Below, piece after piece: positions 33,362-55,191 of a stretch of 64,000 nt of DNA (position 1 is the stretch's first letter; each line of letters opens with the position of its first letter). The position numbers and the translations under genes were made by a program. Origin of the DNA: Candidatus Dormiibacterota bacterium (GTDB lineage: Bacteria; Chloroflexota; Dormibacteria; Aeolococcales; Aeolococcaceae); assembly GCA_963709585.1 (NCBI GenBank), contig CAVPXI010000014.1, positions 84,320-148,319 of the forward strand. Direction: 5' to 3'. Under the pieces are notes generated by a model that had not been told where the DNA came from, made no database searches, and worked only from the letters and a program-made list of their open reading frames with translations.

Positions 33362-36300
33362 TTAGGTGATATGGACGGTGACGGCCGTCGATGTCGTCGA
33401 ATTGCCGGCATTGTCCGTGGCCACGGCGGTCAAGGAGTAGGTTCCCCTCACCAGCTTGGTGGTGTTCCAGGCGAAGGTATATGGGCTGGTCTTGACCGTG
33501 GCCAGTACTGTGGTCCCGTTGAGATAGAACGTCACAGTCGCAATACCCGAGGCCGCGCCCGTGCCGGTGCCCACATCGGACGCGCTGGCCGTGACCGTCA
33601 CCTTCGTGCCCAAGGCAAAGCTCGATCCCGATGCGGGCGATGTGACCGAAACCACCGGAGGTGCGGCGTCGATCTTGATTGACTGGGACTTGACGGCTCC
33701 CTTGTTCCCGGCCACGTCCACCGAGAAGAACTTGATCGTGGCTGTTGCCGACACGGTGAAGGGCCCGGTGTAGACCGGGCTCGAGGTCGTCGGCGTCGAG
33801 CCGTCATTGGTGTAGTAGGTGGCGGCAACACCCGAGCCACCGGTGTTGTCCGTGGCCACCAGGGCGACGGTCACCGGAGTTGTCTTGTACCAGCCTGTGG
33901 AGCACGTGGTGCTGTTGCAGGTGATGGTCGTCGTCGGTGCAACCGTGTCGATCTGGATGGCCTGGGACTTGACGGCCTCGGCATTGCCGGCGTTGTCCAC
34001 CGAGAAGAACTTGACGGTGGTCGTGGCCGACACGTTGAACGGCCCGCTGTAGACCGGGCTCGAGGTCGTCGGCGTTGAGCCGTTGGTGGTGTAGTAGGTG
34101 GCCTTGACACCGGAGCCACCCGAGTTGTCCGTGGCCGCCAGGGCGACGCGCACCGGAGTTGTCTTGTACCAGCCTGTGGAGCACGTGGTGCTGTTGCAGG
34201 TGATGGTCGTCGTCGGTGCGACCGTGTCGATCCCGATGGCCTGGGACTTGACGGCCTCGGCATTGCCGGCGTTGTCCACCGAGAAGAACTTCACGGTGGT
34301 CGTCGCCGACACGGTGAACGGCGCGCTGTAGACCGGGCTCGAGCTGGTTGGCGTCGAGCCATTGGTGGTGTAGTAGGTGGCCTTGACACCGGAGCCACCC
34401 GTGTTGTCCGTGGCCGCCAGGGCGACGGTCACCGGTGTGGTGTTGTACCAGGCCGTGCACGCGGCGCTGTTGCAGGTGATCGTGGTCGTCGGTGCGACCG
34501 TGTCGATCTCGATGGTCTGGGCCTTGACGGACTCGGCATTGCCCGGCCTTGTCCACCGAGAAGAACTTGACGGTGGTCGTGGCCGACACGTTGAACGGCC
34601 CGCTGTAGACCGGGCTCGAGGTCGTCGGCGTTGTGTTGTCAATCGTGTAATAGATGGCCGCGACACCCGACCCACCGGTATTGTCCGTTGCCGTCAGGGC
34701 GACGCTCACCGGCGTTTTGTTGTACCCGCCCGAGGAGCACGCCGTGCCGTTGCAGGTGATCGTCGTCGTCGGTGCGCTGGCATCGATCTCGATGGTCTGG
34801 GACTTGACTGCCTCGGCATTGCCGGCGTTGTCGACGGAGAAAAACTTGACGGTGGTCGTGGCCGACACCATGAAGGACGCGGTGTAGGCCGGACTCGAGG
34901 TCGTCGGCGTCGAGCCGTCAATCGTGTAGTAGGTGGCCGCGACACCCGAGCCGCCGGTGTTGTCCGTGGCCGTCAGGGCGACGGTCACCGGAGACGTGGT
35001 GTACCAGCTCGTCGAGCACGCCGCGCTGTTGCAGGCGATGGTCGTCGTCGGCGGGGTGGTGTCGGGAAGCTGGACCTGGATCGATTGGGTGTTGACGGTC
35101 TCGGCATTGCCGGCGTTGTCCACCGAGAAGAACTTCACGGTCGTGGTCGCCGACACGTTGAAGGGCGCGGCGTAGACGGTGCTCGAGGTGGTCGGAGTCG
35201 AGCCGTCGGTGGTGTAGTAGGTCGCGGCGACCCCGGAACCGCCGGTGTTGTCCGTGGCCGTCAAGCCGACGGTGACCGCGGAGGTGTACGCGCTCGTCGA
35301 GCACACCGTGCCGTTGCAGGCAATGGTGGTCGACGGCGCGACGGTGTCAATCTGGATCGTCTGCGAGTTGACCGCCTCGGCATTGCCGGCGTTGTCGACG
35401 GAGAAGAACTTGACGGTGGCCGTCGCCGAAACTGTGAAGGGCCCGGTGTAGACCGAGCTCGAGGTCGTCGGTGTCGAACCGTCAGTGGTGTAGTAGGTGG
35501 CGAAGACACCGGAGCCGCCGCTGTTGTCCGTGGCGGCCAAGGTGACCGTCACCGGCGAGGTCTTGTACCAACCCGTGGAGCACGTCGCGCTGTTGCAGGT
35601 GAGGCTGGTCGTCGGCGGGGTGGTGTCCACCGTGATCTGGATCGCCTGAGTTTTGACGGCCTCGGCGTTGCCGGCCAAGTCGATCGAATAGAACTTCACC
35701 GACTTGCTCTGAGACAACGTGAACGGCGCCGCGTAGGCGGTGGCCGTGCCGCTGGTCGTGGGGTCGCTCCCGTCGGTGGTGTAGTAGGTCGCACGGATTC
35801 CGGAGCCACCGGCATTGTCGATCGCGGACAGACCCACCTGCACGGGAAGCGCGTAGCTCGCCTGACAGGTCGTGCTGTTGCAGCTGACGCTGGTGGTCGG
35901 CGGGACCGTGTCGATCTGGATCGCCTGCGACTTGACCGCTTCCGTGTTGCCGACCTTGTCGGTGGAGAAGAACTTCACCGTGGCCGTACTCGAGACGGTG
36001 AACGGTGCGGTGTAGACAGCGCTCGCGGTGGTCGGTGTCGAACCGTCGGTCGTGTAGTAGGTCGCCGCGACCCCGGAGCCGCCGATGTTGTCGGTGGCTG
36101 TCAGCGCGACCTGCACCGCGGTGTTGTACCAGCCCGTGCCGCAGACGAGGCCGTTGCACGTGGCGGTGGTCGTCGGCGGCGTGATGTCCGGCCCGGGCGG
36201 CGCCGTGTGGCAGTTGCCGGTGCCCGAGTTCGTGAAGGTGCTCTCCCCGTTGTTGATGAAGTTCCAGCTGTAGCTGCCGTTGTGCAGGGTCATCTTGATG

Positions 36301-39300
36301 ATCCCGTGCGTCGTGGCGTTCAGCACCTGGCTGTTGGGGGCTGGGCTCGCCGGCGTGTCCAGGCCGTTACCCCCGGTCCCCACCACGAATTCCTGCACGC
36401 CATAGGTCGGGTCCAGGACCCCGCTCGCGTTCTGTGGAGCGAACCGCTCGTACCAGTGCGAACCGGCGCTGAGGACGACGTCGACGCCACCGGTGTAGAG
36501 GTCTTGCCAGATCTGCTGGTAGGTGCTGTCGCCTCCTCCGGCCGTGGAGCTGAACCGTGGGTCCTTGTAGTAGGCGAGGGTGCAGACGGAGGTGTCATGG
36601 GCCAGGTCGTTCTGAAGCCACAGGTCCTCAGCGCCTCCGGCCGCGCAGAAGGTGGCGTCTGTCTGGCACGGCGCGGTGTTCAGGGCGATCATGTGCCACG
36701 AGCCGAGGTTGTAGCTGTAGTAGCCCTTTGTAGGGTCACCGGCTGCGGCTCCGAAATACTGGTAGTAGCCTGCACCGGCTGTCGTCGGACAATCGGTGCC
36801 CCCGGTCGTGGGCAGCTCGTAGCCATAGTCGTTGTCGCCCGGGACCGGGTGTGTGATCGCCAGCTTCTGTCCCCAGCTCAAGGCGTAGGACTGCAAAAAG
36901 GCCTGGTATCCACCGCAGTTGTACTGGGTGTCGCCGATGGGCAGGACCGCATCGACGCCCGTGAGCAGCTTCTCCGTGGAGGCGGCAACGCAGTCGGGGC
37001 TTACGCCGAACCCGTTGTTGAAGGCAGGGGAGTTGGGATCGCACGCGATGTCACCCGCGGCTCCGATGATCGGGTCCGGGTTGGGCGTCACCTGGATCTG
37101 CTGCGTCTCTACCGCCTCGGTGTTGCCGGCGTTGTCAACCGAGAAGAACTCCACGGTGGTGTTTTGCGCGATCGTCCACGGGCCGGTGTACTGGGGGCTC
37201 GACGTGGTTGGGGTGGTGCCGTCGGTGGTGTAGTACGTTGCCTTCACCCCGGCGCCGCCGGCGTCCGTCGGCGACAGCGCGAGCGTCGTGGAGCCGTTGT
37301 AGGTGCTGGCCTGACACGGCGCGCCATCACAGGAGATTGTGGTGACCGGCGGGGTGGTGTCGGGTGGGAAGAGCAGCTGACGTATGGTCTCGGTCGTGGT
37401 CCCGACCGGAGCGCCGCCTGGCTGGCCGGCGTTCTGCAGCCAGGTGACGAAGGCGCTGATTGTGTCGAGCTCGACAGCCCCTCCGGTGGCCACGCAGGCG
37501 CTGTAGCCTGCCGGGTCGTAGGTCTGCGAGCAGATGTCATGGATCACCACGGGGACCCAGCCACCGCCGTTCTGGTAGGCGGCCGTCACCGAGTTCTCGA
37601 AGTACGAGAGAGGGATCTCGTTGGTGCCGTTGCCGTTGTAGATGGTACGGGTCGCCAGCATGTTCTTGGGCGGGATGGTCTCGGAGTAGAGCGGTCCGGC
37701 GCCGACACCGGCCACGTCGATGCCACCCGCGGCTCGAGCGGTCGTGTATCCGCACCCCTGCACGATCAACTCGGCATTGGCGTTATAGGCGCCGTAGCCA
37801 TACGCGAAGCCGACCGGGTCGAACCCGTGGGCGATGAGGTTCTCTCGATCGATGCAGGTGTTGTCGATCTTCTGCTGCTGGGTCGTCGCGGAGCTGGTGA
37901 GATCCATCTCCTGAAGACCGTGCCCGGCGATCTCGTCGCTGTGGTTGTAGAGAGTGGTCATCTCCGCGTAGGTCATCTCGTTGGGGTCCACGCCGACCTG
38001 GCCCGTGTTGACATAGAAGGTGGCGCGGACATTTCCGTCGGGCAGGAGCACATGTTCAAAAGCGAGGGAGTACCCGGCCTCATAGCCGTCGTCGAAGGTG
38101 ATCGTGACGATGGTCGCGAAGTTGATGGTCTGCGACTGCGGCTGCTCGGCATTGCCGGCAAGGTCGGTCGAGAAGTAGCGGATCGTCGCATTCTGCTGGG
38201 CGGTGAAGGGACCCGTGTAGACCGTGCTCGAGGTGGTGGGCGTTGACCCGTCGATGGTGTAGTAGGTGTTGGCCACGCCCCAGCCACCGTTCGGGTTGTC
38301 CGTCGCGGTGAGGGTGACGGTCACCGGCGCTGTGTAGGGAGTGGTGGCGCACGGCGCGCCGTTGCAGCTGATGCTGGTCACCGGTGGCGTGGAATCGGGC
38401 TGTTCCACGAGAGAGATGGACACCGAGCCGACCCCTGTGGCGTTGCCGGCGTAGTCCCAGGATTCGTAGGTGACCGTGGTCGAGGCGGTGAGTGGGAAGG
38501 TCCCGGTGTAGAGAGTGCCGCTGGTCGGCGATGGCGTGCTGCCGTCGGTGGTGTAGCGGGTGCTGGCCACCCCCGAGCCGACATCGGTCGGCTGCAGGGT
38601 CACGTAGACGGTGCCCTGATAGGTGGTCGACAGGCACGAGGCTCCGTTGCAGGAGACGCTGCTGACCGGCGGCACCGTGTCAACCGTGGTGGCGGTGGGA
38701 TGGATGGGCTCGAACACCGACCCGGCCGGGGCGCCGCCGCTCTGACCGGTGTTCTGCACCCAGGTGAGGAAGGTGTTGAGGTCACCGAGGTCGATCCAGC
38801 CCGCCACCGAGGTGCAGGTCGCGTAGTTGCTGGGGTCGAGGGTGGATGAGCAGACCCGCTGGATGACGATGGGGACCCAGCCTCCGCCGTGGGCGGCCGC
38901 CCCGGTCACCAACGCCTCCAGGTTGGCCAGGGTGACCTGCCCGGTGGGGGCGTAAGCGCGCAGCCCCAGCCAGTCCTTGGGCGGTAGGGTCTCCGCGTAG
39001 GTGGGTCCGGTGGGCGACAAGCTGCCGGCGGTGCGCGCATTGCCGTAGCCGCAGCTCTCGACCTCCTGCTCGAGACTGGCGTTGAAGAATCCTCCCGGGT
39101 AGGCGAAGGTGGTCGGGGTGATGCCGTGCTGGAGGATGGTCTGCCGGTCGTTGCAGATCTCGCCGATCTGCTGCGCGGCGCTCAGTGTGGTGAGATTCGT
39201 GTCGTCGACGGTCTTGCCGCCGATGTCGTTCCCGGCCGCAGCCAAGGCGCTCAGCTGCGCCCAGGAGAGGGTGGTCGCGCGGCCGATGGTGCCGCTGTTG

Positions 39301-40862
39301 ACGTAGAAGGTCGCGGTCACGCCATGGGGCTGCAGAGCCTGCTGCCAGCCCAGGGTGTACTGACTGTAGCCGCCATTGTCAAAGGTGAGCGACACCGCCG
39401 TCTTGTACGGCTGCACCTGGACCTGCTGCGACTCCACCTGCTCGGTGTTGCCCGCGAGGTCGGTTGAGAAGAATTGGACGTTCGTCGAGGCGTTCAGCGC
39501 GAACGGCCCGGAGTACACCGGGCTCGATGTGGTCGGCGTCGAGCCGTCGGTGGTGTAGTAGGTATGAGCTACCCCCCAGCCGCCGGCATTGTCGGTGGCG
39601 TTGAGGGTCACGCTGACGGTTCCAATGTATGGAGTCGACAAGCAGGGCGCGTTGTTGCAGGCGATGGTCGTCGTCGGTGGCGTGGTGTCGGGTGGCGGCT
39701 GGATCGAGAGTGCCTGCGTGTTCACCGCCTCGGCATTGCCAGCGTTGTCCCACGAGCTGTATTCGACGGTCGTCGAGGCGGTCAGCGGGAACGGGCCGGT
39801 GTACGCGGGGCTGGTCAGCGTGGGCGTGCTGCCGTCGGTGGTGTATCGGGTCGTGGCCACGCCGGAGCCGAGGTCGGTCGCCGCGAGCGCCACCGAGACG
39901 GTTCCGCTGTACGTGCTGGACTGACACGGCGCTCCGTTGCACGAAATCAACGTCGTCGGCGCCACCGTGTCGGCTGAGGTTGCCGCAGCCCCGATGGTCT
40001 TGAAGACCGTGCCTGCGGGTGCGCCACCCGTCTGCCCGGCATTCTGCACCCAGGTCAAGAAGGTGTTGAGGTCTGCGAGGTCGATCGCCCCGGCAGACGC
40101 CAGGCATGTGCTCTCGTTGGGGTCAGTGGGAGAGCAAACCTTCTGGATCACGATCGGTACCAAGCCCCCGGTGGTCGCCGCGCCGTTCACCAGGTTCTCG
40201 AGGTTGGTCAGGGTGACCTGCACGGAGGCGGACCACGCGCGCATCGCCAGCCAATTCTTAGGCGGCGTTGTCTCCGCGTAAGTCGGCCCAGTGGGAGAGA
40301 GGCTTCCTGATGTGCGGGCGTTGCCGTAACCGCAGTTCTGAACCTCACTCTCGATCGTGGTGTTGAAGGCACCGGCCGGGTAGGCGAAGGTAAACGGCAC
40401 GATGCCGTGCGACATGATGTTCAGGCGATCGCCGCAAATCTCGTTGATCTGCTGCGTGGAGGTGAGCGTGGTCAGGTTGGTGCCGTCGGTGGTCTTGCCG
40501 CCGATCTCATCGCCCGCGCCGGCGAGCGTGCCCAGCTGCGTCCACGAGATTTTAGTGGTGCTTGTTCCGGTCGCGACTGTCCCGCTGTTCACGTAAAAGG
40601 TCGCGGGAACGGCGTGCGGCTGCAGGGCCTGCTGGTAGCCGAGCGTGAACTCGCTGGCTGTGTTGTTGTCGAAGTTGAGCGAGACGATCGTCGAGGTAGC
40701 CGCACGTGCGCTGAGGACGCCCGGCCCGAACATCACGGGCGCCACCGCCACCATCGCGATCGCGAGGGCGAGGCAGACACCCGGGCGCCTCATCGAGCGG
40801 AGGTGCCCCGATTCCGTTGCGTCGTATCGCCGTTGAGTTTTTCCGCCTTCCACCTTGCTCAC
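33362..40862 (-). pseudogene. giant (about 2,500 aa) secreted multidomain protein: 3 CE4/NodB-like domains, a purple-acid-phosphatase-like metallophosphoesterase, 14 tandem 93-aa modules and a terminal Ig-like domain; one apparent frameshift
   Basis: ORF 33804..40862 is coherent until ...VKFFSVDKAG and then degenerates. ORF 33362..34675 continues in another frame (NAESVKAQTIEIDTVAPTTT...). At 34541-34550 the sequence reads gcccggcctt where sister repeats read gccggcgtt. Approximate layout: signal peptide MRRPGVCLALAIAMVAV (ATG 40793; the ORF could also start at GTG 40862); CE4-like domains at about 39960-40690, 38700-39400 and 37390-38110; phosphoesterase at about 36330-37080 (GDIACD, GDTQYN, AGSHWYER); repeats at 33669-36198 and between the enzyme domains. 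Confidence 0.85.
33669..36198 (-). repeat. nine head-to-tail coding repeats of about 279 bp (93 aa) inside the giant gene
   Basis: Antisense shadow ORFs recur at 33819, 34098 and 34377 (279-bp spacing, peptides mostly identical) and again at 34654 and 34933. Protein consensus: TVAPTTTITCN..C....Y...V.V.L.ATDN.GGSGV.ATYYT.DGSTPTTSS.VY.GPF.VSATTTVKFFSVDNAGNAEAVKSQ.I.ID. Confidence 0.9.
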
Positions 40863-40941
40863 CCCTTCTTGTCAACCCGGTGCACCGCTGCCTTCAGCAA
40901 TGCTGTTATTCGGTCTATCGGCGTCATCGCATGTGTATTGC

Positions 40942-41886
40942 TCACTGTGTCATCGCCTGGCGTACGGTCTCGACGACCGTTCCCGCGGGCGCGCCACCCG
41001 GATGTCCGGCGGCCGCAAGCCAGTCAAGGAACTGGCCCATCAGCCGGTCGTCGATCGCACTCCAGCTCGACATGCAGGTCTTGTAGTCGGCCGCGGCGTG
41101 GTCGCAGACCTGGTGGAAGGTGAGCGGCAGCCAGCCGCCGCCGTGCGCCGCCGCCGCGTTGACGAAGGTCTCCAGGTCAGCGAGGTTTTTCGCCTTCGGT
41201 GCGTCGACATCGACGGTACGCAAGGCGTACGGGTCCTTCGGCGGCAGCGTATCCGCCCAGGGGAAGCTCGGGACCGTGGTTAACAGAGATGCGTCCCCAC
41301 CTTCTCTGGAGTTCAAGTATCCGCACGACCCGACGATGGCCTCGGCGGCGGTGTTGAATGCGCCGAACGGATACGCATACGAGACCGGGTCCACGATCCC
41401 GTGGGCGAGCAGGTCCGTGCGCGACCCGCACACGTCTGCCAGCTTGTCGGTGTAGGAAACTGCCGGATCGGTAAGCCTGACGTGACTCACACCATGCCCA
41501 CCGATGTCGTCGCCCTCGCTCTGCAGCGTGCGCAGCTGTGCAAACGACATGCAGCAGCGGAAGGGTCCGTCACTGTCCGACGTGATCACGTAGTACGTCG
41601 CATTCATGTGACGCGCGCGAAGCAGCGGTCGCAGGTAAAGGTACTGGTCCAGGTAGCCATCGTCGAAGGTGAGCGATATCACCAACTTTGGGGGGCGCAG
41701 ATGGACCACCGTGGTGTTCGCCTGCGCGGAGGCGCAAGCGCTGACCCCCCACGCAGTCGCTATCGACACTGCCCCGAGGGCAGCGACTCTCAGAAAACGC
41801 CGCGGTTGCTGACTCGAGCGCACGCGGCGCTGCACCTGCTCGAGCGGACTGCGTCGTGGCGGGATGCCTCGGTGCACGTCGCTCAT
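40942..41886 (-). CDS. polysaccharide deacetylase (CE4/NodB homology) family protein, secreted
   Basis: ORF 40942..41964, trimmed to the ATG at 41886, which forms an ATGA overlap with the upstream gene. Signal peptide. Canonical ISLTFDDGY motif, GGHGVSH, YAYPFG. The C-terminal segment is paralogous to the domain tails of the giant protein (HGGGWLPLTFHQVCD...GGAPAGTVVETV). Confidence 0.85.
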   Translation of the reverse strand: MSDVHRGIPPRRSPLEQVQRRVRSSQQPRRFLRVAALGAVSIATAWGVSACASAQANTTVVHLRPPKLVISLTFDDGYLDQYLYLRPLLRARHMNATYYVITSDSDGPFRCCMSFAQLRTLQSEGDDIGGHGVSHVRLTDPAVSYTDKLADVCGSRTDLLAHGIVDPVSYAYPFGAFNTAAEAIVGSCGYLNSREGGDASLLTTVPSFPWADTLPPKDPYALRTVDVDAPKAKNLADLETFVNAAAAHGGGWLPLTFHQVCDHAAADYKTCMSSWSAIDDRLMGQFLDWLAAAGHPGGAPAGTVVETVRQAMTQ

Positions 41887-43933: not shown

Positions 43934-43957
43934 GTGCCCGCCGAAGCCGGGATCAAC

Positions 43958-44665: not shown

Positions 44666-46290
44666 CGGCGCGGGCTCGACGGGCGTTCACTCCGGGGAGC
44701 GGGTTCCGCGGCCTCGTCTTCCCCGGCGTTCTCAATGTTGAGCAGCGTGCTCGACGGGCTGGGAATCTTTGCGGCCCGCGCGGAGTGCCCGTTGAGTGCC
44801 GGTGCGGGCGCGGTGACCGGGTCAGGCGTCTCGACCTTGGCGGCAGACCTCTCCGCCGCCTCGGCGGGTGTGGTCAGCGGGCGCGGAAGGCGGCGCGCTC
44901 TGCCCACGTTGACGAGCGCACACGCGACCAGGTCGTCAGGCGAACGCCCGAGCTGAGACATCGCGGCCCGCACCTGAGCGCGTGTCGACAGCCGGGCATC
45001 AGCAACGAACAGGATCATATGGCTCAACTGGGCGAGCACCTCGGTGTCCGCGCTCGCCAGCACCGGCGGCGCTTCGACCACGATGAAATCAGCCCGATCG
45101 CGGAGCTGCCCGAGGAGTCGTGGCAGGGCAGGCGAGACCATCATCGCTCCAGGGTCGGGCACCGAACGGCCGGCCGAGATCAGCTGCAGCCCGGGGACGT
45201 CGGTGTCGCGCAGTGCAGAGCCAAGGCTCGAACGATCCAAGAGCACGCTGCTGAGTCCGACCCCCTCGCTCAGGCCGAAGAGCTCATGAGTGCGGCTCCC
45301 TCGCAAGTCCGCGCAGACCAGGATGACTTGCCGGCCGGACAGCGCCAGGGCCGCGGCCAGGTTCGCCGCGACTGTGGCCTTGTCTTCCCGGGTCGCGCTG
45401 GTGACCGTGAGCGTGTCGGCACTTCGCCCACTGGCCGCCTGGAGGACCCGTGTCCGTAGGTCGCGATATGCCTCGGCGACGCGGGAGCCTGGACTGTGAA
45501 CGATGACGAGCCGCTCGCCCGCGGACCGCTTCCGGGTACGGAAAGCCGGGATCAGTGCCAGGACCGGCGCATCGGCCTCGGTCGCCAGATCGAGGGGCCC
45601 ACGAAGGCGGTCGTCGATCGCGTCACGCGCGAAGGCCACACCGACCCCCAGCGCCAAACCCAGAATCAAGGCGACGCCGACGTCCAGCCAGCGATTCGGA
45701 CCTGTCGGGGATGCGGGCCGGGAGGCATCACTGATGAGGCTTGGCCGCACCGCGCCGGGCGCGGCCGGAGCCGGGGTCTTGCTGCCTGGCACGAACGTCG
45801 GCGCAGGAGTCCGAAATCCAACATAGGCCTCCGCAATACCCTCAGCCGCGCGCTGAGCCTGGATCGGGTTCGGAGCTGAGAAGGCGATGTCGAGCAGATC
45901 GGTGTCCACCGGGACGGTCACCGACAACCCGGACTGCAGCGCGCTCGGCGAGATCTCCGCCGCCCTCGAGGCGATCAACAGCACTGCCTCCGACGACACG
46001 ATCCCCTTCTCGGTGGCCATCACCACGGGCTGCTGGCTCGCGGCACTCGCCGATTCGGCGAAGACGACCACCGTCGCGTGCGACGTGTATATCGACTTCT
46101 GCTCCTTCGCCACCACGTACGCGCCCGCCGTCACCGCCAGGGCGATCAGCAGGATCCACGCCAGGTGCGCCCTCAGGAACCGCGACCCGACCCCGGTCTC
46201 GCGCGCCCGGGGTGCGCGAGGCGGCGGGATTGCGGTGTAGCGCTCGCCGCCGCCCTCCAACTGAGTGGGCAGTCTTGAGTGTGCACTCAT
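44662..46290 (-). CDS. polysaccharide co-polymerase (Wzz domain) fused to a BY-kinase-like P-loop domain with degenerate motifs
   Basis: ORF 44662..46692, trimmed to the ATG at 46290 (MSAHSRLPTQ). TM helix plus Wzz-like region (AKEQKSIYTSHATVVV...LLDIAFSAPNPIQAQRAAEGIAEAYV) and a second TM helix. The ATPase-like domain reads TSATREDKAT, LVCADLRGS and FIVVEAPP in place of canonical Walker A, A' and B. Confidence 0.8.
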   Translation of the reverse strand: MSAHSRLPTQLEGGGERYTAIPPPRAPRARETGVGSRFLRAHLAWILLIALAVTAGAYVVAKEQKSIYTSHATVVVFAESASAASQQPVVMATEKGIVSSEAVLLIASRAAEISPSALQSGLSVTVPVDTDLLDIAFSAPNPIQAQRAAEGIAEAYVGFRTPAPTFVPGSKTPAPAAPGAVRPSLISDASRPASPTGPNRWLDVGVALILGLALGVGVAFARDAIDDRLRGPLDLATEADAPVLALIPAFRTRKRSAGERLVIVHSPGSRVAEAYRDLRTRVLQAASGRSADTLTVTSATREDKATVAANLAAALALSGRQVILVCADLRGSRTHELFGLSEGVGLSSVLLDRSSLGSALRDTDVPGLQLISAGRSVPDPGAMMVSPALPRLLGQLRDRADFIVVEAPPVLASADTEVLAQLSHMILFVADARLSTRAQVRAAMSQLGRSPDDLVACALVNVGRARRLPRPLTTPAEAAERSAAKVETPDPVTAPAPALNGHSARAAKIPSPSSTLLNIENAGEDEAAEPAPRSERPSSPRR

Positions 46291-46364
46291 ATGATTCGAG
46301 TTCTGCCGCGAACGGGTGGGCGATGGTTCAGTTGTTTCGTCCGCGCGATCCCATAAAGGCGTGT

Positions 46365-47879
46365 TCACATCAGGTCCTCGTTCGCTGGCGCTTGCTGTCG
46401 GCTGGGGGAGCGCGCGACCGCGGCGCGCCGGGTTCCGGTAGCGGCCAGGGCGGCCAGAATGAACATGGCGTCGGCTGATCCGCGATACGTTAGGTGGGGA
46501 TCGAACACCATCAGGACAGCGGTCACGATCACCGCGACGAACGTGGCAGATCCAGCGATACCGGCTGCGTCTGCGCTCCCACGCGCCACTCGCCATCCGC
46601 GCTTCGCCATCGCGACGACGAAGAAGACAAAGCTTGCGAACAGCGGGATCCCGCCTCCCCAGAGCAGCCAGGTGTAGCCGCTCTCGATCCACACGTAGCC
46701 GGTCCCCTGAGTCGCCACCGCAACTCGTGCGGCCGGGCGGACACCGAGAATGAAGTTCCAGTCAGCGAACAGCTGCGGCCAGAAGTAGTTCTGCAAATTC
46801 TGCACTCGGTCTGTCCAGCTGACCGGCAGCCCGCTGGCCGACCCGAAGCTGCCGAGCCGGACGGCGAGCACCGGCCACACGACCACTGAGCCGATCAGCC
46901 CGGCGGGAACAAGGACTTTGAGCAGCCGCGCGGAATTGGTCACGGCTGCGATACACGCGGCGCCCACCAGGAGGCCGATGACGCCGGAGAACTCGCCCGC
47001 GGACAGCGTCCCCAGAACGAGCAGCCCGGCAGCAGCTCCGAGCAGGGCTCGGTGGCGGCGGCCACGCGACAACATGGCACCGACGATCGCCAGGTTGTAG
47101 ACCATGAGATCCGCAGTCGCCGCAGGCAGCCCGAGGGTCGAGCTGCCACGCGCCGGAAAAGCCTGCGTGTAGCCATCGGGCGCAAAAAATGTGGCGAGGA
47201 ACCTCGGGACCCCGAAGAGGCTCAGTGACTGCACGATCGCGACCACTGCGACAATGCACGCGGCGGCGACTGAGATCCACAGGCAGCGGAGGATTTGTTG
47301 ATCCGTGGTGACGCTCATGCGGATCACCGCGTACAGGCCGAGGAACTTCCAGAGCACGAGCGCGTACAGCAGATCGTCAGAGGTGATCTGCTCCTGGCGG
47401 ACTGCCATCCACAGCAGGGGGACGACGGAGCTGCACACGGCCAGCAGAACGATGGAAGCCTCGACAGCCCCGATCCGGAGTCGCGGTAGCCGTCCGGTTC
47501 GCAGCCCGACGATGCCGCGTGTCCCCAGCGCCACGCCCGCGATCAGGACGATCGCCTCGTTCGGCCGAAGCACGGGTATCGCCGAACCGCGGTTGATCCC
47601 GGCGGTCAGCGGGGTGAGTCCGACGATCAGGAAGGCGCCCAATGCGGGCCATCGCCATACGCAGGCAATGAGCCCCAGGAGCAGCAGCGCGGCAAGAGCG
47701 TACAGCGGGGCAAAGGTGCTGGCGGCGCCCGCCACCGCGGCACCGACCAGGATCGGCCCGAGGAACCAGCGTCCGGACGGGCGGCCAAGCCGAGGCCATT
47801 CGCGGCCCCAGGGCGTGGACGTGGTCCCGACGCGATCAGCGCCCCGGGTCGTTCCGAGCCGCGCGCCTGCTTCAACCAT
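46365..47879 (-). CDS. O-antigen ligase / Wzy-like polymerase family membrane protein
   Basis: ORF 46365..47942, trimmed to the ATG at 47879, which shares its A with the upstream TGA. At least 10 TM helices with a large loop. Typical context between the flippase and the co-polymerase. Confidence 0.75.
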   Translation of the reverse strand: MVEAGARLGTTRGADRVGTTSTPWGREWPRLGRPSGRWFLGPILVGAAVAGAASTFAPLYALAALLLLGLIACVWRWPALGAFLIVGLTPLTAGINRGSAIPVLRPNEAIVLIAGVALGTRGIVGLRTGRLPRLRIGAVEASIVLLAVCSSVVPLLWMAVRQEQITSDDLLYALVLWKFLGLYAVIRMSVTTDQQILRCLWISVAAACIVAVVAIVQSLSLFGVPRFLATFFAPDGYTQAFPARGSSTLGLPAATADLMVYNLAIVGAMLSRGRRHRALLGAAAGLLVLGTLSAGEFSGVIGLLVGAACIAAVTNSARLLKVLVPAGLIGSVVVWPVLAVRLGSFGSASGLPVSWTDRVQNLQNYFWPQLFADWNFILGVRPAARVAVATQGTGYVWIESGYTWLLWGGGIPLFASFVFFVVAMAKRGWRVARGSADAAGIAGSATFVAVIVTAVLMVFDPHLTYRGSADAMFILAALAATGTRRAAVARSPSRQQAPANEDLM

Positions 47880-49577
47880 CAATGCACTCCGCCGTTGCCG
47901 GCCGGGCGGTGGCGCAACTGGCCGAGCCCGCCGACGAGCCATCCAAGCTCAGGGGACCGCCACCAGGCTTGCAGCGCCAGGAACACGGCGCCTCCGACCA
48001 GGGCGGCTGCGAGTATTCCGACCCGAGGGCCGAACGATCCGCCGAGCAAGCGCGGGATGGTAGCCGCCACGATCCACGCCGGCCCGGCCATGACCACGGC
48101 AGCGGCCGCGAACTTGGCGATCGAGGGCAGCAGCCGGTACGAGGCGGCTCCACCGACGTTCCGCCTGACGCGGGCGTTCAGATGGAGGCCGGCCACCGCG
48201 GTCGACGCAGACAGGGCCAGCCCGAGGACCAGCACCACTGCCGGGCCGTGGACGAGGAGCGAGCTGGTCGCCAGCGACAGGCACGTGACCGCCTGAATCA
48301 GCATCGAGACCAGCGGCGACCGCGTGTCCTTCATCGCATAGGAGGCGTAGGTCGCGATCATGAACGCCGTCTGGCCGACGACGGCCACCGATAGCGCAGC
48401 GAGTGAGAAGGCCACCAGGTTGATGCCCGTCGCTGTATCCATCCTGCCGAACGAGATCGCTCGGCCCAGGGGGAAGGCCAGCACGAGGTAGCCGACGGCG
48501 GCCGGGATGGCGACGAAGAATCCCAGGGCCAGGCCGCGCACGAGCGCGTCGCGAAATGCGGCAAGGTCGCCGGCGAGGTGCATCCGCGCGAGCCTCGGGA
48601 GCAGGGAAAGCGCCACCGGCGTCGCCCCGATCGCGATCGCCAGGTAGTAGAAGTTCAGTGCGATCTGGAAGGCGACGACTCCCCCTTCAAGCCGATTGGC
48701 CATCACCAGGAGGGTCAGAATCTGAACCGCGCCGAGCCCGGCTTGCGCCAGTGCCGGTAGCGCCCGCCGCACGACGGTGCGAACCTCAGGGTCGCGCCAC
48801 CCGGGGAGCGGCACGAGGACCACGCCGGCCCGCCGTGCCCCCCACCACTGCGTCGCCGCATGCAGGGCGACCGCGCCGGTGGAGCCGAGCCCGAGGAGGA
48901 GGATCTCGCCGAGGGGCACGTCTGTGACGTTGGTACTCGAGCCGTAGAGCAGCGCGGCGGCACCAAGCACCGCAATCGTGCCCAGGTTCTCCACGGCCGG
49001 GGCGCCGGCAGCGAGCGCGAAGCGCCGTCGCGAGTTCATCACCGCGGTCGCCGACCCGACGACGCCGTAGAGAAAGATCTGCGGGATGAACATGAGAATG
49101 AGGAGTTGCCCGACGCGCACCTGTGCGGCGCTCGTGAGCGCATGTCCCCCGCCCAGCGCCGCGAGCCGCAATGCCTGGGGGCCGAGGCCGACAGCCACCG
49201 GGGTGATCACGAGCAGCGCTATCAGCGTCATGCCCAGGAAGCCACCCGCGACCCGTTCCGATGCCCGACGGTCGCCGGCGTCGATATGGCGCACGAGCGC
49301 CGGAACCAGCAGCGACGAGAAGAGCGAGCCGGCCAGGAAGCCGTAGTAGACGAGGTTGGGAAGTGAGTTGGTGAACTGATAGGTGTTCCCGAAGAAGGTG
49401 GGGCCGAGGACCGCTCCGATCACGGCGAATCGCATTAGCCCGGTGACCCGGCTGACGATCGTCCAGGCCGCAACAGTTAACGAGTTCGCCTGCGGCGGAG
49501 ATTGGGCTGAGGTGCGGCTCCGGCTCGCGCGCGGAAGTCGCGGCCGGCACCAGGAGAGTCGAGGATGGTGTGCTCAT
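47879..49577 (-). pseudogene. MurJ/MviN-type (MOP superfamily) lipid-linked glycan flippase, one apparent frameshift near the N-terminus
   Basis: ORF 47879..49435 starts at MRFAVIGAVLG. Its frame reads ANSLTVAAWTIVSRVTGL just upstream (MurJ N-terminal signature) but has no start codon. The ATG at 49577 forms an ATGA overlap with the upstream gene and opens MSTPSSTLLVPAAT...SAAG in another frame. The frames switch at about 49483-49497. Confidence 0.75.
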
Positions 49578-50299
49578 CGCGCCCCGGTTGTGGAGAGCAC
49601 GACCGGCACCGTCCGCAGCAGGATGGAGAGATCGAGGGTGAAGCTCCTCCTGTCCACATACTCGATGTCCAGGTCGAGCCCGTCCTTCATGGTGAGGCTG
49701 TTCCTGCCACTGACTTGCCAGAGGCCGGTGAGGCCCGGAGCGACGAGAAACCGCCGGGAGTGGGGTGGACGGATCAACTCCGCCTCCCAGGGCAACGCTG
49801 GGCGCGGCCCGACGAGCGACATGTCCCCGCGAATGACATTCAGCAGCTGTGGGAGCTCGTCGATGCTGGTCCTGCGCAGCAGCCGGCCGACCTTGGTGAT
49901 CCGCGTGTCGTTTTCGAGCTTGTAAAGGCCCTGCCGCCCCCCGGTTGGCGGCTGGTCCAGCGTGAGCAATTGGGTGACGTAATTGCGATGGACGTCATCT
50001 GGGGAGCCAGCGTGCATCGTCCGGAACTTGTAGAGCACGAACGGCCGCTGTCCTCGGCCAAGCCGGGTCTGCCGGAACAGCGCCGGTCCCGGGCTGGTCA
50101 GCTTGATCAACACAGCCACGAGAACGAGCAACGGGGATACCAGGATCAGACACGCCGACGCAATCACGATGTCCAGCACGCGCTTGCTGGGCGGCGTGCG
50201 CAGCGGAACATCACGTGCGTCGTCGATCGGAAGGTCCGCTGCGGCGCGAAGGTGATCGCTGAAGATCATCGAAGCCTCACCCTTGCTCCTCGCTTCCAT
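49574..50299 (-). CDS. undecaprenyl-phosphate sugar-phosphate transferase (small PglC/WbaP-C-type 'bacterial sugar transferase')
   Basis: RVLDIVIASACLILVSPLLVLVAVLIKLTSPGPALFRQTRLG, YKFRTM, DELPQLLNVIRGDMSLVGPRP. The start ATG at 50299 shares its A with the upstream TAA. Confidence 0.9.
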   Translation of the reverse strand: MEARSKGEASMIFSDHLRAAADLPIDDARDVPLRTPPSKRVLDIVIASACLILVSPLLVLVAVLIKLTSPGPALFRQTRLGRGQRPFVLYKFRTMHAGSPDDVHRNYVTQLLTLDQPPTGGRQGLYKLENDTRITKVGRLLRRTSIDELPQLLNVIRGDMSLVGPRPALPWEAELIRPPHSRRFLVAPGLTGLWQVSGRNSLTMKDGLDLDIEYVDRRSFTLDLSILLRTVPVVLSTTGAR

Positions 50300-50940
50300 T
50301 AGCGGCGGGCCTCGCCCATCGATAGCGACGAATCGAGCCTGTCGCCGAGTTCGATCCGCGCTCCGATCGCCGGCAGCCGCCGAACCTCACCGCGCACCCG
50401 GGCGGGGTTGCCGAACGCCACGCATCCTTCGGGGATGTCGCGGGAAACCACCGAGCCGGCGCCGATGAGACATCCGGCCCCAATATGGACGAAGGGAAGG
50501 ATGGTCACGTTGACGCCGATTTGCGCGCCTGCCCCTATCGATGGCCCACACATCACCGCGGCCGACGCTGCCTGCCCGGGGTACAGATCGTTGGCGATGG
50601 TCACGCCTGGCGCGAGAAAGGCGTCGTCTCCGATCTCTGTGAACTGCGCGATGTAGCAGTTCGCGTGGATCTTCACGCGGTCACCGATAACGCATCCGTA
50701 GTCGATCACGGAGTTGCTCCACACCGAAACGTCGTCACCGATGCGGCAGTCCTCGCGAATCACCACGTTGTGGCCGGTCTCGAAGCTTGCTCCGATGCGC
50801 GATCCCACGTAGACCACGGTGCCGCTGCGGAGGTGCGGGTCCTGGCCCAGCACCAGTTCTCCGGCCGCGTTTCGCGAAGATGGATAGCCGACGATGGCGC
50901 TCGAGTTCAATCCGCGGATCCCCACCCGCGACCATGTCAC
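50299..50940 (-). CDS. hexapeptide-repeat (left-handed beta-helix) sugar N-acetyltransferase
   Basis: ORF 50299..51126, trimmed to the GTG at 50940, which forms a GTGA overlap with the aminotransferase stop. Repeated [LIV]G-x4 hexads (IGDDVSVWSNSVIDYGCVIGDRVKIHANCYI...IGAGAQIGVNVTILPFVHIGAGCLIGAGSVV). Confidence 0.85.
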   Translation of the reverse strand: MTWSRVGIRGLNSSAIVGYPSSRNAAGELVLGQDPHLRSGTVVYVGSRIGASFETGHNVVIREDCRIGDDVSVWSNSVIDYGCVIGDRVKIHANCYIAQFTEIGDDAFLAPGVTIANDLYPGQAASAAVMCGPSIGAGAQIGVNVTILPFVHIGAGCLIGAGSVVSRDIPEGCVAFGNPARVRGEVRRLPAIGARIELGDRLDSSLSMGEARR

Positions 50941-52076
50941 GCAACGTCGACCTGCTTCGAGCGCAACGCATCGTGGACTGCGGCGTGCACCGCGTCGCAC
51001 ACCGCGACGATCTGAGCGTCGCTCATGTGCGGGAACATCGGCAGCGACAGCACCTCGCCCGCGGCAGCCTCCGCGACCGGAAGCGGCCCATCGGCGAAGC
51101 GGCGATATGGAGTTTGCCGGTGGCATGGGACCGGGTAGTGGATTCCGCTTTCAATGCCCGCCGCCGCGAGCCGCTGCTGAACCATCGCTCGACCCGGAAC
51201 TCGTACCACTGCCAGGTGGTGGACTCCTCGGGACCCGGTCGCCTCCTGCACAAGTCGCGCGGGCCCCGACGCAAAGACGGCGCCATATCGCGTGGCGATT
51301 GCTCGGCGAGCCTCGTTCCAGGTGTCGAGCCGAGGGAGCTTCGCCGTGAGCACCACAGCCTGCAATGCATCCAGCCGGCTGTTGGTGCCGACCACGACGT
51401 GGCGGTAACGCGTCCCGCGGGCGCGGCCGTGGTCGCGCAGCCGCCGCAGCCGTTCCGCAAGGACAGCGTCACCGGTCACGACTGCGCCGGCGTCGCCGAA
51501 CGCGCCCAGGTTCTTGCCCGGGTAGAAGCTGAAGCAGCCCGCCCGACCGAACGACCCCGCTCGCCGGCCGTTCCAGGTCGCCCCGTGCGCCTGAGCGGCA
51601 TCCTCAATGAGCACGACGCCGGCCCGACTGGCGGCGCGGCAGAGCGCGTCCATGTCCGGCATCTGGCCGTAGAGGTGCACGACGATCACCGCCCGCGTGC
51701 GCGGCGTGATTGCCGCCTCGAGGTCGGCAGCGGTGAGCAGCAGGGTCTCCGAGCTCACATCGGCGAATCGCGGCGTTGCCCCTGCGAGAACGACCGCCTC
51801 CGCCGTGGCCACGAAGGTGTTCGCCGGAACGATGACCTCATCGCCGGCGCCGATCCCGAGAGCGGTGAGTGTGAGTTGGAGGGCGTCCGTCCCATTGGCC
51901 ATGCCGATCGCATGGCCCAGGCCACAGTAGGCGGCCCATGCATCTTCGAACTCCTCGACTGCCTGACCACCGATGAAGGCACTGGAGTCGAGGAGTTTCG
52001 CCCAGTTCTGGTCGATGGTGGCGCGAATCTCGCGCGTCATCGCGGCAAGGTCGGTGAACGGGACCAGGCGTGTCAT
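50937..52076 (-). CDS. DegT/DnrJ/EryC1/StrS-family PLP-dependent sugar aminotransferase
   Basis: FIGGQAVEEFEDAWAAYCG, ANGTDALQLTL, VIVPANTFVATAEAV and FYPGKNLGAFGDAG (Lys-containing PLP site). Confidence 0.9.
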   Translation of the reverse strand: MTRLVPFTDLAAMTREIRATIDQNWAKLLDSSAFIGGQAVEEFEDAWAAYCGLGHAIGMANGTDALQLTLTALGIGAGDEVIVPANTFVATAEAVVLAGATPRFADVSSETLLLTAADLEAAITPRTRAVIVVHLYGQMPDMDALCRAASRAGVVLIEDAAQAHGATWNGRRAGSFGRAGCFSFYPGKNLGAFGDAGAVVTGDAVLAERLRRLRDHGRARGTRYRHVVVGTNSRLDALQAVVLTAKLPRLDTWNEARRAIATRYGAVFASGPARLVQEATGSRGVHHLAVVRVPGRAMVQQRLAAAGIESGIHYPVPCHRQTPYRRFADGPLPVAEAAAGEVLSLPMFPHMSDAQIVAVCDAVHAAVHDALRSKQVDVA

Positions 52077-53338
52077 CCCGCCTCCGATTCGGGCAGCAGG
52101 AGCTCAGGCAGCGGCGCAGCCATGACACTGGCCTGCCCAGCGGTGAGCGGGGAACGGGTAGCGCCATCGTTGCCCCGGCCGACAAGGTGGATGAGGCGCC
52201 CTCGAATGTCAACCTCGTCGAGCAGTACGGGACGGCCCAGGCGGCGCGAGAGCTGTGCCGCCTCAAGCGTCTCGACCACCGCGAGCCCGTTTTCCCCATC
52301 GGTCTGAGGAGCGGCACCGGTCGCGGCGCACTCGACAAAGTGCCGGTCCTGCACGGCGAGCGGCTCGTCCGGGGGGACGAACGGCACCATGATGTCGCCG
52401 TACCGATACGACGTCGGCGGCTGACTGATGTTGCCACTATTCGGCGAAAGGCACACACCCTTGTCGAGGACGCGTATCCGCTCCTCAGTGGCAACGTCGT
52501 CGTAGATGGCCATCTTCTTGCTCCCGACGGCCGTCACGCGGCGCACCTTGCAGGGGTCCAGCCAGCTCACGTGGATATTTGCGGACAGCCCCTGGTCAGC
52601 GAACAGGTCGTCGTAGAACAACCGCAGATACGCGACGTCCTCGAACCGGTGGTGAGCGTGTCGCGCGGCCCACGCCTGGACCGCGACTGGCTTGCGCCCC
52701 AGCACGAAGTTGAAGATGGAGATGTCATGGGGCGCCAGATCAAGAATGACGTTCACGTCGTCCTGATAGAGCCCGAGATTGAGCCGGGCGCTGTCGAGGT
52801 AATACAGCTCGCCGAGGTCTCCGTCGCGCACCAGCTCGCGGAGCTTCCGCACCGCAGGGTTGTACTCGAATGTGTGGCCGACCATAAGGACCACGCCCGC
52901 CGCGGAGGCCGCATTGATGAGCTGCAGCGCGCCCTCGGTCGTCGGCGCGAGTGGCTTCTCGACCAGGACGTGCTTACCGGCTTCTATCGCTTGCAGCGCG
53001 ACTCCCACGTGCGTGCTCGGCGGAGTTGCGACCACGACGGCGTCCACGTGCTCGAGCGCCGCCTGGAGGTCAGTGTGACCGAGTGCCGTCCTGAAGCTTC
53101 GAGCCAGCTTGTCCAGGCGCTCGGCGCGGCTATCGACCATGACGACCTGAGCGACGCCCTCGGTTGCGTCGAGTACCCGGACGTGTTTCGATCCCCAGTA
53201 TCCGCAGCCAACGACACCAACCCGCAAACCCGGTTCACGAGCCGTGAATGCATGCAATCCACCCAAGCCAAGGCTCGTCGCGTCCTCGACGCCTTGTACC
53301 GCTCCGGGTGGGCGCGCTCCGTCCATGCGCCTAGCCAC
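52073..53338 (-). CDS. Gfo/Idh/MocA-family NAD-dependent sugar oxidoreductase
   Basis: Rossmann motif VGVVGCGYWGSKH. EKPLA motif (HVLVEKPLAPT). ATGA overlap with the aminotransferase start. First gene of the locus. The start may be 53338 or the ATG at 53326. Confidence 0.85.
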   Translation of the reverse strand: MARRMDGARPPGAVQGVEDATSLGLGGLHAFTAREPGLRVGVVGCGYWGSKHVRVLDATEGVAQVVMVDSRAERLDKLARSFRTALGHTDLQAALEHVDAVVVATPPSTHVGVALQAIEAGKHVLVEKPLAPTTEGALQLINAASAAGVVLMVGHTFEYNPAVRKLRELVRDGDLGELYYLDSARLNLGLYQDDVNVILDLAPHDISIFNFVLGRKPVAVQAWAARHAHHRFEDVAYLRLFYDDLFADQGLSANIHVSWLDPCKVRRVTAVGSKKMAIYDDVATEERIRVLDKGVCLSPNSGNISQPPTSYRYGDIMVPFVPPDEPLAVQDRHFVECAATGAAPQTDGENGLAVVETLEAAQLSRRLGRPVLLDEVDIRGRLIHLVGRGNDGATRSPLTAGQASVMAAPLPELLLPESEAG

Positions 53339-54931: not shown

Positions 54932-55191
54932 GGTCGGACCTCCGGTTCGCTCGGCCCGGTCGGGTAGCCTGGCGCGCATCGAGGAACGGCGAGCTGCGGA
55001 GGCCGCTAGCTGACGACCCGTCCGGTGATGCCCGGACTCCGGGCGCACCCGCCGCGGAATCGGCGTGCTCCATCGGGAAGCTAGCAGCCGTTACACGGAT
55101 GTGAATCGGTGGCAACCGATCCTTCATGTGGCTGTTACACAGCTACCACGGGTCGGCGATCCGAACGTCGAACGCGAAGTCCGCTCAGCGA

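Follow-up and report, generated by a model that had tools for sequence, protein, structure and literature searches.

A conserved gene cassette of soil Actinomycetota and a Dormibacterota genome, most likely for a sulfated, partly de-acetylated amino-sugar polysaccharide of the cell surface

What kind of glycan is made by a bacterial locus in which genes for a diamino sugar, a Wzx/Wzy-type assembly line, a sulfotransferase-like protein and a giant secreted protein follow one another in the same direction? This question is raised by a stretch of 64,000 nucleotides from contig CAVPXI010000014.1 of a Candidatus Dormiibacterota bacterium (the window, with a G+C content of about 66%, in which all coordinates given here are positions). 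A survey of long open reading frames (ORFs) and codon bias finds twelve coding regions on the minus strand at 33362-53338, named g01 to g12 (Table 1). A first-pass annotation of this DNA had delimited these twelve genes, all of which are present, and had proposed profile searches as a check on its gene labels; these labels agree with the family assignments of Pfam and NCBIfam, which were obtained for ten of the genes, the exceptions being g06 and g10. Its boundary, however, was drawn too early, as the locus continues upstream into a further gene, up1, and its paralogue up2. The whole is a conserved cassette of soil Actinomycetota, carried here by a Dormibacterota genome, and its most likely product is a sulfated, partly de-acetylated amino-sugar polysaccharide for the cell surface. 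More precisely, we consider it probable that this Wzx/Wzy cassette produces a surface or extracellular polymer of short, probably disaccharide, repeats that contains a 2,3-diacetamido-2,3-dideoxy-hexose, is sulfated in the cytoplasm and is partly de-N-acetylated after export. Every substrate, the sequence of events, the functions given to g06, g08 and up1 and the nature of the product are inferred from what was observed directly: domains and folds, the state of motifs, synteny, linkage to sulfate-activation genes and natural gene fusions.

That these genes belong together is seen in their relatives. A search with g10, with one genome per species, gave at least 33 related loci (L-numbers below; P-numbers are proteins of the g06 family), each of which was then compared by tblastn with every protein of the window. 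About 20 independent loci carry cassette genes together, and g01 to g10 co-occur in about 15 loci, from several Actinomycetota lineages, an arrangement that is far beyond chance. These ten genes are collinear in metagenome-assembled genomes (MAGs) labelled Acidimicrobiales/Acidimicrobiaceae, Jatrophihabitans and Actinomycetes; Kribbella antiqua, Nocardioides species, a Nocardioidaceae MAG and Geodermatophilus ruber have them in a rearranged order. Synteny in relatives, on which the first-pass annotation had staked its proposal of a single system, is thus found. A Wzz/GNVR-type co-polymerase is kept in most complete loci, giant proteins with several CE4 domains occur in nine, and up1 is a member of the cassette because it occurs in ten related loci. 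As to how the cassette came to this host, the cytochrome c oxidase subunit I encoded in the window (18394-19668) is 97-99% identical to that of Candidatus Dormibacterota MAGs and 55-59% to that of Actinomycetota, whereas the cassette proteins are 60-79% identical to Actinomycetota homologues. Because the cassette is thus nearer to Actinomycetota than the host oxidase is, and because none of the at least 33 g10 loci listed among species representatives carries a Dormibacterota label, horizontal transfer of the cassette between Actinomycetota and Dormibacterota is suggested.

The sugar is indicated by the first three genes, which the first-pass annotation had read as the trio that makes a di-N-acetylated amino sugar. 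The best NCBIfam match of g01 is UDP-N-acetylglucosamine (UDP-GlcNAc) 3-dehydrogenase (NF040723), at 194.7 bits and therefore below the cut-off of 450; its nearest PDB chains are 3c1a and 7bvj, the latter of which we take to be the UDP-GlcNAc 3-dehydrogenase GnnA, and WlbA (3q2i/3q2k) is also matched. For g02 the two best PDB chains have generic names (2oga, E 2e-94, 'Transaminase'; 7b0d, 'Glutamine--scyllo-inositol transaminase'), and named matches near the top are QdtB (3frk, E 5e-84) and WbpE (3nu7/3nyu, E 3e-80 to 6e-80). The best matches of g03, searched with its intact orthologue from the related locus L034, are QdtC (3fs8, 1e-32), a WxcM-like protein and WlbB (3mqg). Genes for a putative 3-dehydrogenase, 3-aminotransferase and 3-N-acetyltransferase are therefore adjacent, and the named nearest structures of g02 and g03 are C3-specific enzymes, which bears out the trio. 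The same triad of Gfo/Idh/MocA, DegT and left-handed beta-helix proteins is found in the WbpB/WbpE/WbpD route of Pseudomonas, the WlbA/C/B route of Bordetella and archaeal or GnnA-type routes. In this locus none of the twelve products matches a UDP-sugar 6-dehydrogenase or 2-epimerase family in Pfam, and a neutral sugar is for this reason expected instead of a uronic acid. A 4,6-dehydratase family is not matched either. The WbpA-dependent uronic-acid route could be discarded because none of the twelve products matches the UDP-sugar 6-dehydrogenase family. The most economical product of the trio would be UDP-2,3-diacetamido-2,3-dideoxyglucose. A variation on this theme occurs in two otherwise complete cassettes (L005:3611-5390 and L010:860-2663), in which the N-acetyltransferase is absent and the aminotransferase gene lies directly before the phosphoglycosyl transferase gene. 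There the 3-amino group would remain free or be modified otherwise; more speculatively, sulfate might be attached to this free amino group.

The next genes agree with the Wzx/Wzy-type route that had been proposed, as they encode a phosphoglycosyl transferase of the small type, a flippase of the MurJ family, a probable co-polymerase and a single GT4 enzyme. The phosphoglycosyl transferase g04 also matches TIGR03025 (265.6 bits). The flippase g05 belongs to the MurJ family and not to the Polysacc_synt (Wzx) type; since its TIGR01695 score (115.7 bits) is under the murJ equivalog cut-off (235.6), it is judged to be a dedicated paralogue and not the housekeeping flippase. The single further glycosyltransferase of the first-pass annotation is g09, the only Leloir enzyme of the locus, and a disaccharide repeat is expected because there is one initiating transferase and one GT4. 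The protein g06, with about 10-11 transmembrane (TM) segments by hydropathy and two conserved loops, had been called Wzy/ligase-like, a label that has no sequence backing from Pfam or solved structures and for which the basis is topology and gene fusions. Its 15 orthologues have zero Pfam matches at E<5, profiles included, and nothing meaningful in the PDB, and no member of its family (more than 1,000) has a functional name. A profile search of 1.84 billion representatives returned 858 relatives, and the best 150 of these include 23 proteins of at least 900 aa with the g06 domain in the second half. In the long relatives that were checked, the domain is fused to MurJ, to a Wzz/P-loop protein or to a Bac_transf phosphoglycosyl transferase (P0361, P0362, P0363, P0389, P0409, P0435, P0485 and P0504), one protein of 1,614 aa combining three such parts. 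Because of the natural fusions to MurJ and Wzz/P-loop proteins we infer that g06 is linked to flipping and chain-length control, which is compatible with a polymerase and implies no homology to Wzy.

The co-polymerase g07, announced as Wzz/kinase-like, has a Wzz-type architecture and lacks the features of a kinase. Hydrophobic segments stand on both sides of a soluble loop, in line with a Wzz-type protein. However, the Walker A position reads TSATREDKAT instead of GxxxxGK[ST] and varies among syntenic orthologues, while unrelated bacterial tyrosine kinases (BY-kinases) in other loci retain PGEGKST. The C-terminal tyrosine cluster is absent as well: Tyr is missing from the final 110 residues of g07 and from the tails of its syntenic orthologues, and the canonical kinases of L028 and L031 have six within their last 40 residues. 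We therefore treat g07 as a co-polymerase with a putative pseudo-kinase domain.

For the proposed sulfation step, g10 is the candidate. The family of g10 has more than 1,000 relatives, none with a functional name or a Pfam domain. An AlphaFold (AF2) model made from 32 sequences (mean predicted confidence, pLDDT, of 90) was compared with the PDB by Foldseek, and all of the 50 best matches were sulfotransferases (best E 2e-4; probability 0.95-1.0, and at least 0.97 except at rank 46). Two motifs accompany this fold in the 32 sequences, a loop resembling the 5'-phosphosulfate-binding (PSB) loop, GYTRSATTF, with T58, R59, A61 and T63 invariant, and an Arg-x7-Ser element of the 3'-phosphate-binding (PB) motif with R104, P106 and S112 invariant. 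The eight-residue spacing from Arg to Ser is the same as in cytosolic SULTs. The PSB loop and the 3'-phosphate-binding element are the residues that define the superfamily of sulfotransferases dependent on 3'-phosphoadenosine 5'-phosphosulfate (PAPS), and the PSB loop of Mycobacterium tuberculosis Stf0 likewise has Arg and Ala in place of Lys and Gly (PMC11625862). g10 thus shares with Stf0 and other PAPS sulfotransferases the fold class, the Arg/Ala PSB loop (PMC11625862) and the PB-helix serine. At the level of sequence it matches no sulfotransferase model and no solved structure, and Stf0 (1TEX) is not among its 50 best Foldseek matches.

Gene context points in the same direction as the fold. 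An ATP sulfurylase gene adjoins g10 in 13 related loci, and in 8 of the 13 it is fused to adenosine 5'-phosphosulfate (APS) kinase, the fusion being a PAPS synthase. In addition, distant g10 homologues stand beside canonical Pfam Sulfotransfer_1 genes in glycan clusters. Together, model, motifs and linkage make g10 a probable PAPS-dependent polysaccharide sulfotransferase of an unmodelled family, in agreement with the 'sulfotransferase-like' gene of the first-pass annotation. In other glycan clusters, distant homologues are also arranged as tandem pairs or triplets, namely in L022:9228-11462, which further contains an LCP ligase and GT4s, and L027:4905-10774, with a Sulfotransfer_1 gene, an epimerase/dehydratase and a large phosphoglycosyl transferase.

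The histidine phosphatase g08, which had also been noticed before, has the RHG motif (LVRHGTT), and its His_Phos_1 match spans the full model. It keeps its place beside g10 in eight loci despite rearrangement (L006, L007, L012, L016-L018, L020 and L027). Because it stays adjacent to g10 when the remaining cassette is rearranged, we suggest that g08 belongs to the sulfation module, with removal of the 3'-phosphate from 3'-phosphoadenosine 5'-phosphate (PAP) as its putative role. A part as the phosphatase partner of a BY-kinase was rejected, since g07 has neither Walker A nor tyrosine cluster and g08 travels with g10. On inspection, neither g08 nor g10 has a strong hydrophobic N-terminal segment, and sulfation, if it occurs, would for this reason take place in the cytoplasm. 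The product had been thought to be modified outside the cell, which fits the secreted CE4 enzymes that are indeed present, but not the sulfation.

Of these secreted enzymes, g11 has a complete set of CE4 motifs (TFDD, HGVSH, AYPFG and FH). It has an N-terminal TM segment at residues 34-52 and a lipobox-like VSAC, and its nearest PDB entries, 6dq3 (presumably Streptococcus pyogenes PplD) and BpsB/PgaB (5bu6), are relatives that act on surface glycans. The giant g12 has a hydrophobic N-terminal segment at 28-46 and contains, according to Pfam, three CE4 domains, at least 14 CHB_HEX_C_1/Fn3_assoc modules and one Big_7 domain. In CE4 modules 1 and 2 both metal-binding histidines and the acid histidine (now Q) are missing, a pattern that is conserved in L034, L001, L006 and L016-L018. 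These two modules are probably degenerate pseudo-deacetylases, for which glycan binding is predicted. Module 3, which retains these residues apart from the second metal-binding His, replaced by Glu (HxxxE), is possibly active; in L006, L016 and L017 the orthologous module has a complete HxxxH. The phosphoesterase domain matches the purple acid phosphatase 6gja in a profile search against the PDB (E 5e-11), and Pfam gives just Metallophos_C at E 0.043. Measured against the seven metal ligands of the motifs GDxG, GDxxY, GNH[DE], VxxH and GHxH, it is degenerate, since motif III (GNH[DE]) has lost its Asn and His and reads GD[NAKH][DE], the His of motif IV is gone and motif V (GHxH), without its first His, reads xSHW; the ligand replacements differ between orthologues. 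To speak of a secreted multi-enzyme and of a dephosphorylated product, as had been done, is therefore an overstatement. The tandem array that makes up the C-terminal half of g12 (Tandem Repeats Finder, TRF) has a period of 279 nt and 8.8 copies with 78% matches. Its module copy number differs in close relatives, the giant being about 210 aa longer here (2,499 aa) than in L034 (2,287 aa).

The upstream genes add a possible trimming activity. up1 also has an N-terminal hydrophobic segment; more than 435 homologues exist, none functionally named, and Pfam offers no family, the only match at a permissive threshold being a spurious low-complexity one to Trypan_PARP. Its AF2 model has a pLDDT of 68, and the Foldseek matches stay below significance (best E 0.09). 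Nearly all of them are lysozyme-like proteins (GH124, MltC, SltB1, MltF and g-type lysozyme), and an invariant Glu-Ser pair lies within 'AVEESTW'. up1 is thus possibly a lysozyme-like, glycan-cleaving enzyme. up2 is 77-81% identical to up1 at the amino acid level and is split over three frames, with switch points at about 55823 and about 55470. In Geodermatophilus ruber (L019:8485-9672), where up1 was undetected, the g10 orthologue is closely preceded on its upstream side by a gene of the GH5 (cellulase) family, which may encode an alternative polymer-cleaving enzyme.

Taken in order, these proteins would form the following pathway. UDP-GlcNAc would be oxidised at C3 by g01, transaminated by g02 and N-acetylated by g03 to give UDP-GlcNAc3NAc. 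The repeat unit would be begun on polyprenyl phosphate by g04, and the second sugar would be added by the GT4 enzyme g09. To this lipid-linked unit g10 would transfer sulfate from PAPS, served by g08, which possibly strips the 3'-phosphate from PAP. The unit would then be flipped over the membrane by the MurJ-like g05 and polymerised by g06 together with the non-kinase co-polymerase g07. Outside, membrane-anchored g11 and CE4 module 3 of the giant would remove N-acetyl groups, and the two dead CE4 modules and the long Ig-like stalk of g12 would bind and position the polymer. Finally, up1, for which a lysozyme-like fold is possible, may trim or release it.

Several observations count against this reading, and part of them can be turned into other explanations. 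Its main weakness is the lack of any PAPS-synthesis gene, both in the 64-kb window and in the 20 kb of sequence covered around the L034 locus. In addition, g10 has no Pfam or NCBIfam match at E<10 and no PDB sequence match, its Foldseek TM-scores are low (0.3-0.43), and in the literature searched there is no precedent for PAP as the substrate of a histidine phosphatase. If the missing PAPS genes, the lack of a profile match and the low TM-scores are set beside the ATGA overlap of g07 and g08, which is reminiscent of kinase-phosphatase pairs, one may argue that there is no sulfation at all, g10 being a P-loop-like protein of other function and g08 acting for the co-polymerase or on a sugar phosphate. 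We regard this as unlikely, given that the PAPS-binding residues are invariant throughout the g10 family, that sulfurylase genes, with or without APS kinase, neighbour it in the 13 loci mentioned, that in rearranged loci g08 follows g10 and not g07, and that g07 offers no tyrosines for a phosphatase to act on; the PAPS genes, for their part, could be elsewhere in the genome. The other weak place is the polymer. Similarity of g06 to Wzy or O-antigen-ligase families is not detectable in Pfam or the PDB, and the matches of g07 to Wzz (21.3 bits, cut-off 25.5), GNVR (18.3, cut-off 27.7), TIGR01007 (104, cut-off 108) and AAA_31 (25 bits, also below the Pfam cut-off) are all short of the mark. With g06 outside every recognised polymerase family, O-antigen-ligase-like and Wzy-like proteins being generally similar in topology, with a single glycosyltransferase besides the initiating enzyme and with kinase features lost from the co-polymerase, g06 might be a ligase or oligosaccharyltransferase that moves a short glycan to a protein, lipid or wall acceptor, so that the product would be a glycoconjugate and not a long polysaccharide. 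This we find quite improbable, as most complete loci keep the Wzz/GNVR co-polymerase, some genomes even having it fused to g06, and several secreted polymer-modifying enzymes (the CE4s and up1) suit a polymer better.

The last point to be weighed is that this copy of the locus contains four frameshifts. In a gapped alignment with L034, a 'Candidatus Dormiibacterota' MAG contig that is the nearest relative found (DNA identity of 92.4% over the whole locus) and in which all twelve genes are intact, there are uncompensated +1 insertions at 50906 and 50350 (g03), 49485 (g05) and 34544 (g12). They put out of frame both ends of the acetyltransferase, the first TM segment of the flippase and the final 390 residues of the giant, which in the sequence as given is two ORFs (33804-40862 and 33362-34675). 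With the acetyltransferase, flippase and giant genes each interrupted, the locus might be a decaying pseudogene cluster whose frameshifts are real and which has no product in this genome. Deleting one base per site, however, yields proteins of 218 aa (g03), 565 aa (g05) and 2,499 aa (g12) that are 88-94% identical to those of L034 (94.5% for the corrected g03), so that the giant of 'roughly 2,500 aa' exists once corrected. Apart from the indels, these genes contain no stop codons and share 88-97% identity with intact orthologues. Moreover, the insertions at 50906, 50350 and 49485 are an extra A within GACTCG (GA[A]CTC), that at 34544 being in a G-run, and an additional A in GACTCG accounts for five of the seven frameshifts of the window, including both switch points of up2. 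A further frameshift splits a housekeeping gene, cytochrome c oxidase subunit I (18394-20411, minus strand), into two ORFs where a G is missing from a G-run near 19667 (PPAA*/GLILL). We consider decay of the locus very unlikely and, because of the shared GACTCG context and the split oxidase gene, read the indels as systematic sequencing or consensus error rather than biology, proof resting with the reads. Programmed frameshifting and phase variation were set aside as well, since the sites are not repeats but share the GACTCG context and the housekeeping oxidase is also split.

The error is possibly a motif-specific one of basecalling or consensus, perhaps with a link to methylation. GACTCG is a GANTC-type site, and five insertions are confirmed against the relative or the paralogue; further candidate insertion sites in this context lie at 5804, 8675, 61144, 62760 and 62987. 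The split oxidase gene belongs to a caa3-type operon (COX2, COX1 and CtaG) at 16943-21213. The frameshifts also bear on the gene junctions, eight of which had been described as overlaps. Six are real (ATGA at 52073, 49574, 44662 and 41883, TGATG at 47879 and GTGA at 42695), and a possible additional GTGA overlap at 46365 was absent from that list. The other two, at 50937 and 50299, are artefacts of the g03 frameshifts and arise solely from the shifted acetyltransferase frames, the junctions set by homology being gaps of 1 nt and 7 nt, the same as in L034. Homology with L034 also sets the start of g04 (MIFSD), and that of g07 is uncertain, the candidates being the GTG at 46368 and, following the gene call of L034, a site at about 46290. 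For annotation, the lesson is that motif-specific single-base errors can both split genes and create spurious gene overlaps.

Animals, algae, cyanobacteria and a few marine bacteria are well known to make sulfated polysaccharides; in bacteria such as these, a polymer of the type proposed here is hardly documented. The first-pass annotation did not recognise a described system in this combination of genes; a comparable cluster has in fact been published, although it is different. This is wps-1 of Actinoplanes missouriensis, a Wzx/Wzy/Wzz-type actinomycete cluster with sulfotransferase genes and a glycoside hydrolase, for which a sulfated exopolysaccharide is predicted, not shown (Tezuka and Ohnishi, 2026; PMC13390465). 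Unlike the present locus, wps-1 has GT2 and GT26 enzymes, two InterPro-recognised sulfotransferases, a methyltransferase, a kinase-like protein and a GH26, and the section consulted does not mention genes for a diamino sugar, a CE4 enzyme, a histidine phosphatase, a PAPS synthase or a giant protein (PMC13390465). Its authors state that proof of sulfated polysaccharides in actinomycetes is still awaited and treat their existence as an open possibility (PMC13390465). Sulfotransferase genes inside polysaccharide clusters are likewise found in the xss (synechan) cluster of Synechocystis (PMC8205485, cited in PMC13390465) and in the sulfated capsule clusters of marine Vibrio and Cobetia (PMC11641403; PMC11766843), where the hosts are cyanobacterial or Gram-negative and the sugars are other ones. 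A secreted or anchored CE4 enzyme encoded in a biosynthetic locus is known from PgaB/BpsB, IcaB, PelA, Agd3 and streptococcal PplD. These systems are synthase-dependent or concern rhamnan, whereas the present locus combines one separate CE4 enzyme with the 2,499-aa g12, in which two CE4 modules are dead and conserved as such, the third has an altered metal site and the purple-acid-phosphatase domain is degenerate.

The pathway logic is thus ordinary Wzx/Wzy and not categorically new. Its interest lies in a sulfotransferase family that had gone unrecognised, in the link of a phosphatase to it, in the design with pseudo-deacetylase modules and in how widely the cassette is spread among soil bacteria. 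A likely function is offered for two large unannotated families, that of g10 (more than 1,000 relatives) and that of g06 (more than 850 cluster representatives). A histidine phosphatase would be tied to sulfation, and inactive deacetylase modules alongside an active one would be a conserved design. As the cassette spans several actinomycete lineages, including cultured strains such as Kribbella antiqua VKM Ac-2541, Nocardioides agariphilus KCTC 19276 and Geodermatophilus ruber DSM 45317, the question is directly testable. In its most far-reaching form, the proposal would be that of a widespread pathway of soil Actinomycetota, passed horizontally to Dormibacterota, for a zwitterionic polymer, similar to glycosaminoglycans, whose diamino sugars are sulfated and in part de-N-acetylated, with a new sulfotransferase family missed by present models, a dedicated histidine phosphatase that clears PAP and dead deacetylase modules of the giant protein that serve as glycan readers. 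Taken as a whole, this is tentative and rather doubtful.

Table 1. Genes of the cassette and domains of the giant protein g12, with their positions in the window and the evidence for each assignment
Feature	Position	Strand	Evidence
g01, Gfo/Idh/MocA oxidoreductase, probable UDP-GlcNAc 3-dehydrogenase	52073..53338	-	GFO_IDH_MocA 95.9 bits
g02, DegT-family pyridoxal phosphate-dependent aminotransferase, nearest to sugar C3-aminotransferases	50937..52076	-	DegT_DnrJ_EryC1 373 bits
g03, left-handed beta-helix (hexapeptide) N-acetyltransferase, two +1 insertions	50277..50935	-	Hexapep 99 bits
g04, small monotopic phosphoglycosyl transferase, initiating enzyme	49574..50269	-	Bac_transf 215 bits
g05, MurJ-family (MOP) flippase, +1 insertion at 49485	47879..49577	-	MurJ 120.8 bits
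g06, polytopic membrane protein of an unannotated family, putative polymerase	46365..47879	-	Topology, fusions
g07, co-polymerase (Wzz + GNVR + P-loop), degenerate kinase domain	44662..46368	-	Profile matches below cut-off
g08, histidine phosphatase branch 1, cytoplasmic	43958..44665	-	His_Phos_1 143 bits
g09, GT4 glycosyltransferase	42695..43933	-	Glyco_trans_1_4 68.5 bits, Glycos_transf_1 54.2 bits
g10, probable PAPS-dependent polysaccharide sulfotransferase, 271 aa	41883..42698	-	Fold, motifs, gene context
g11, CE4 deacetylase	40942..41886	-	Polysacc_deac_1 61.6 bits
g12, giant secreted protein	33362..40862	-	Pfam domains; 2,499 aa once one base is removed at 34544
g12, CE4 modules 1 and 2 with CHB_HEX_C_1 pairs between	38658..40715	-	NFDN/KTTDG/Q and TFDN/KTVDD/Q
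g12, CE4 module 3	37383..38168	-	TFDD / HGLQE / H
g12, purple-acid-phosphatase-like domain	36174..37097	-	Profile against PDB 6gja
g12, tandem array of 93-aa CHB_HEX_C_1/Fn3_assoc modules	33668..36138	-	TRF
g12, Big_7 domain, after the module array	33425-33658	-	Pfam
up1, secreted or membrane-anchored protein, Pro/Thr linker, conserved 320-aa C-terminal domain	53639..55048	-	
up2, paralogue of up1	55198..56144	-	tblastn of up1, three high-scoring segment pairs in frames -3, -1 and -2

Around the cassette, the window holds a gene for a secreted Peptidase_C39_2 and TIG protein that is convergent with g12 (30351-32663, plus strand), a TauE/SafE-family anion exporter (22191-23162, minus strand) and an ABC importer with a TOBE domain beside an OFeT_1-family iron permease (23666-27708, plus strand); of these neighbours, none that was tested is conserved with the cassette. 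No RNA family of Rfam is found in the window. The scan for promoters and terminators was uninformative for the cassette, its single promoter-like site (53463-53434) being not above chance; a strong hairpin was detected at 56615-56586, 3' of the gene at 56643-58463.

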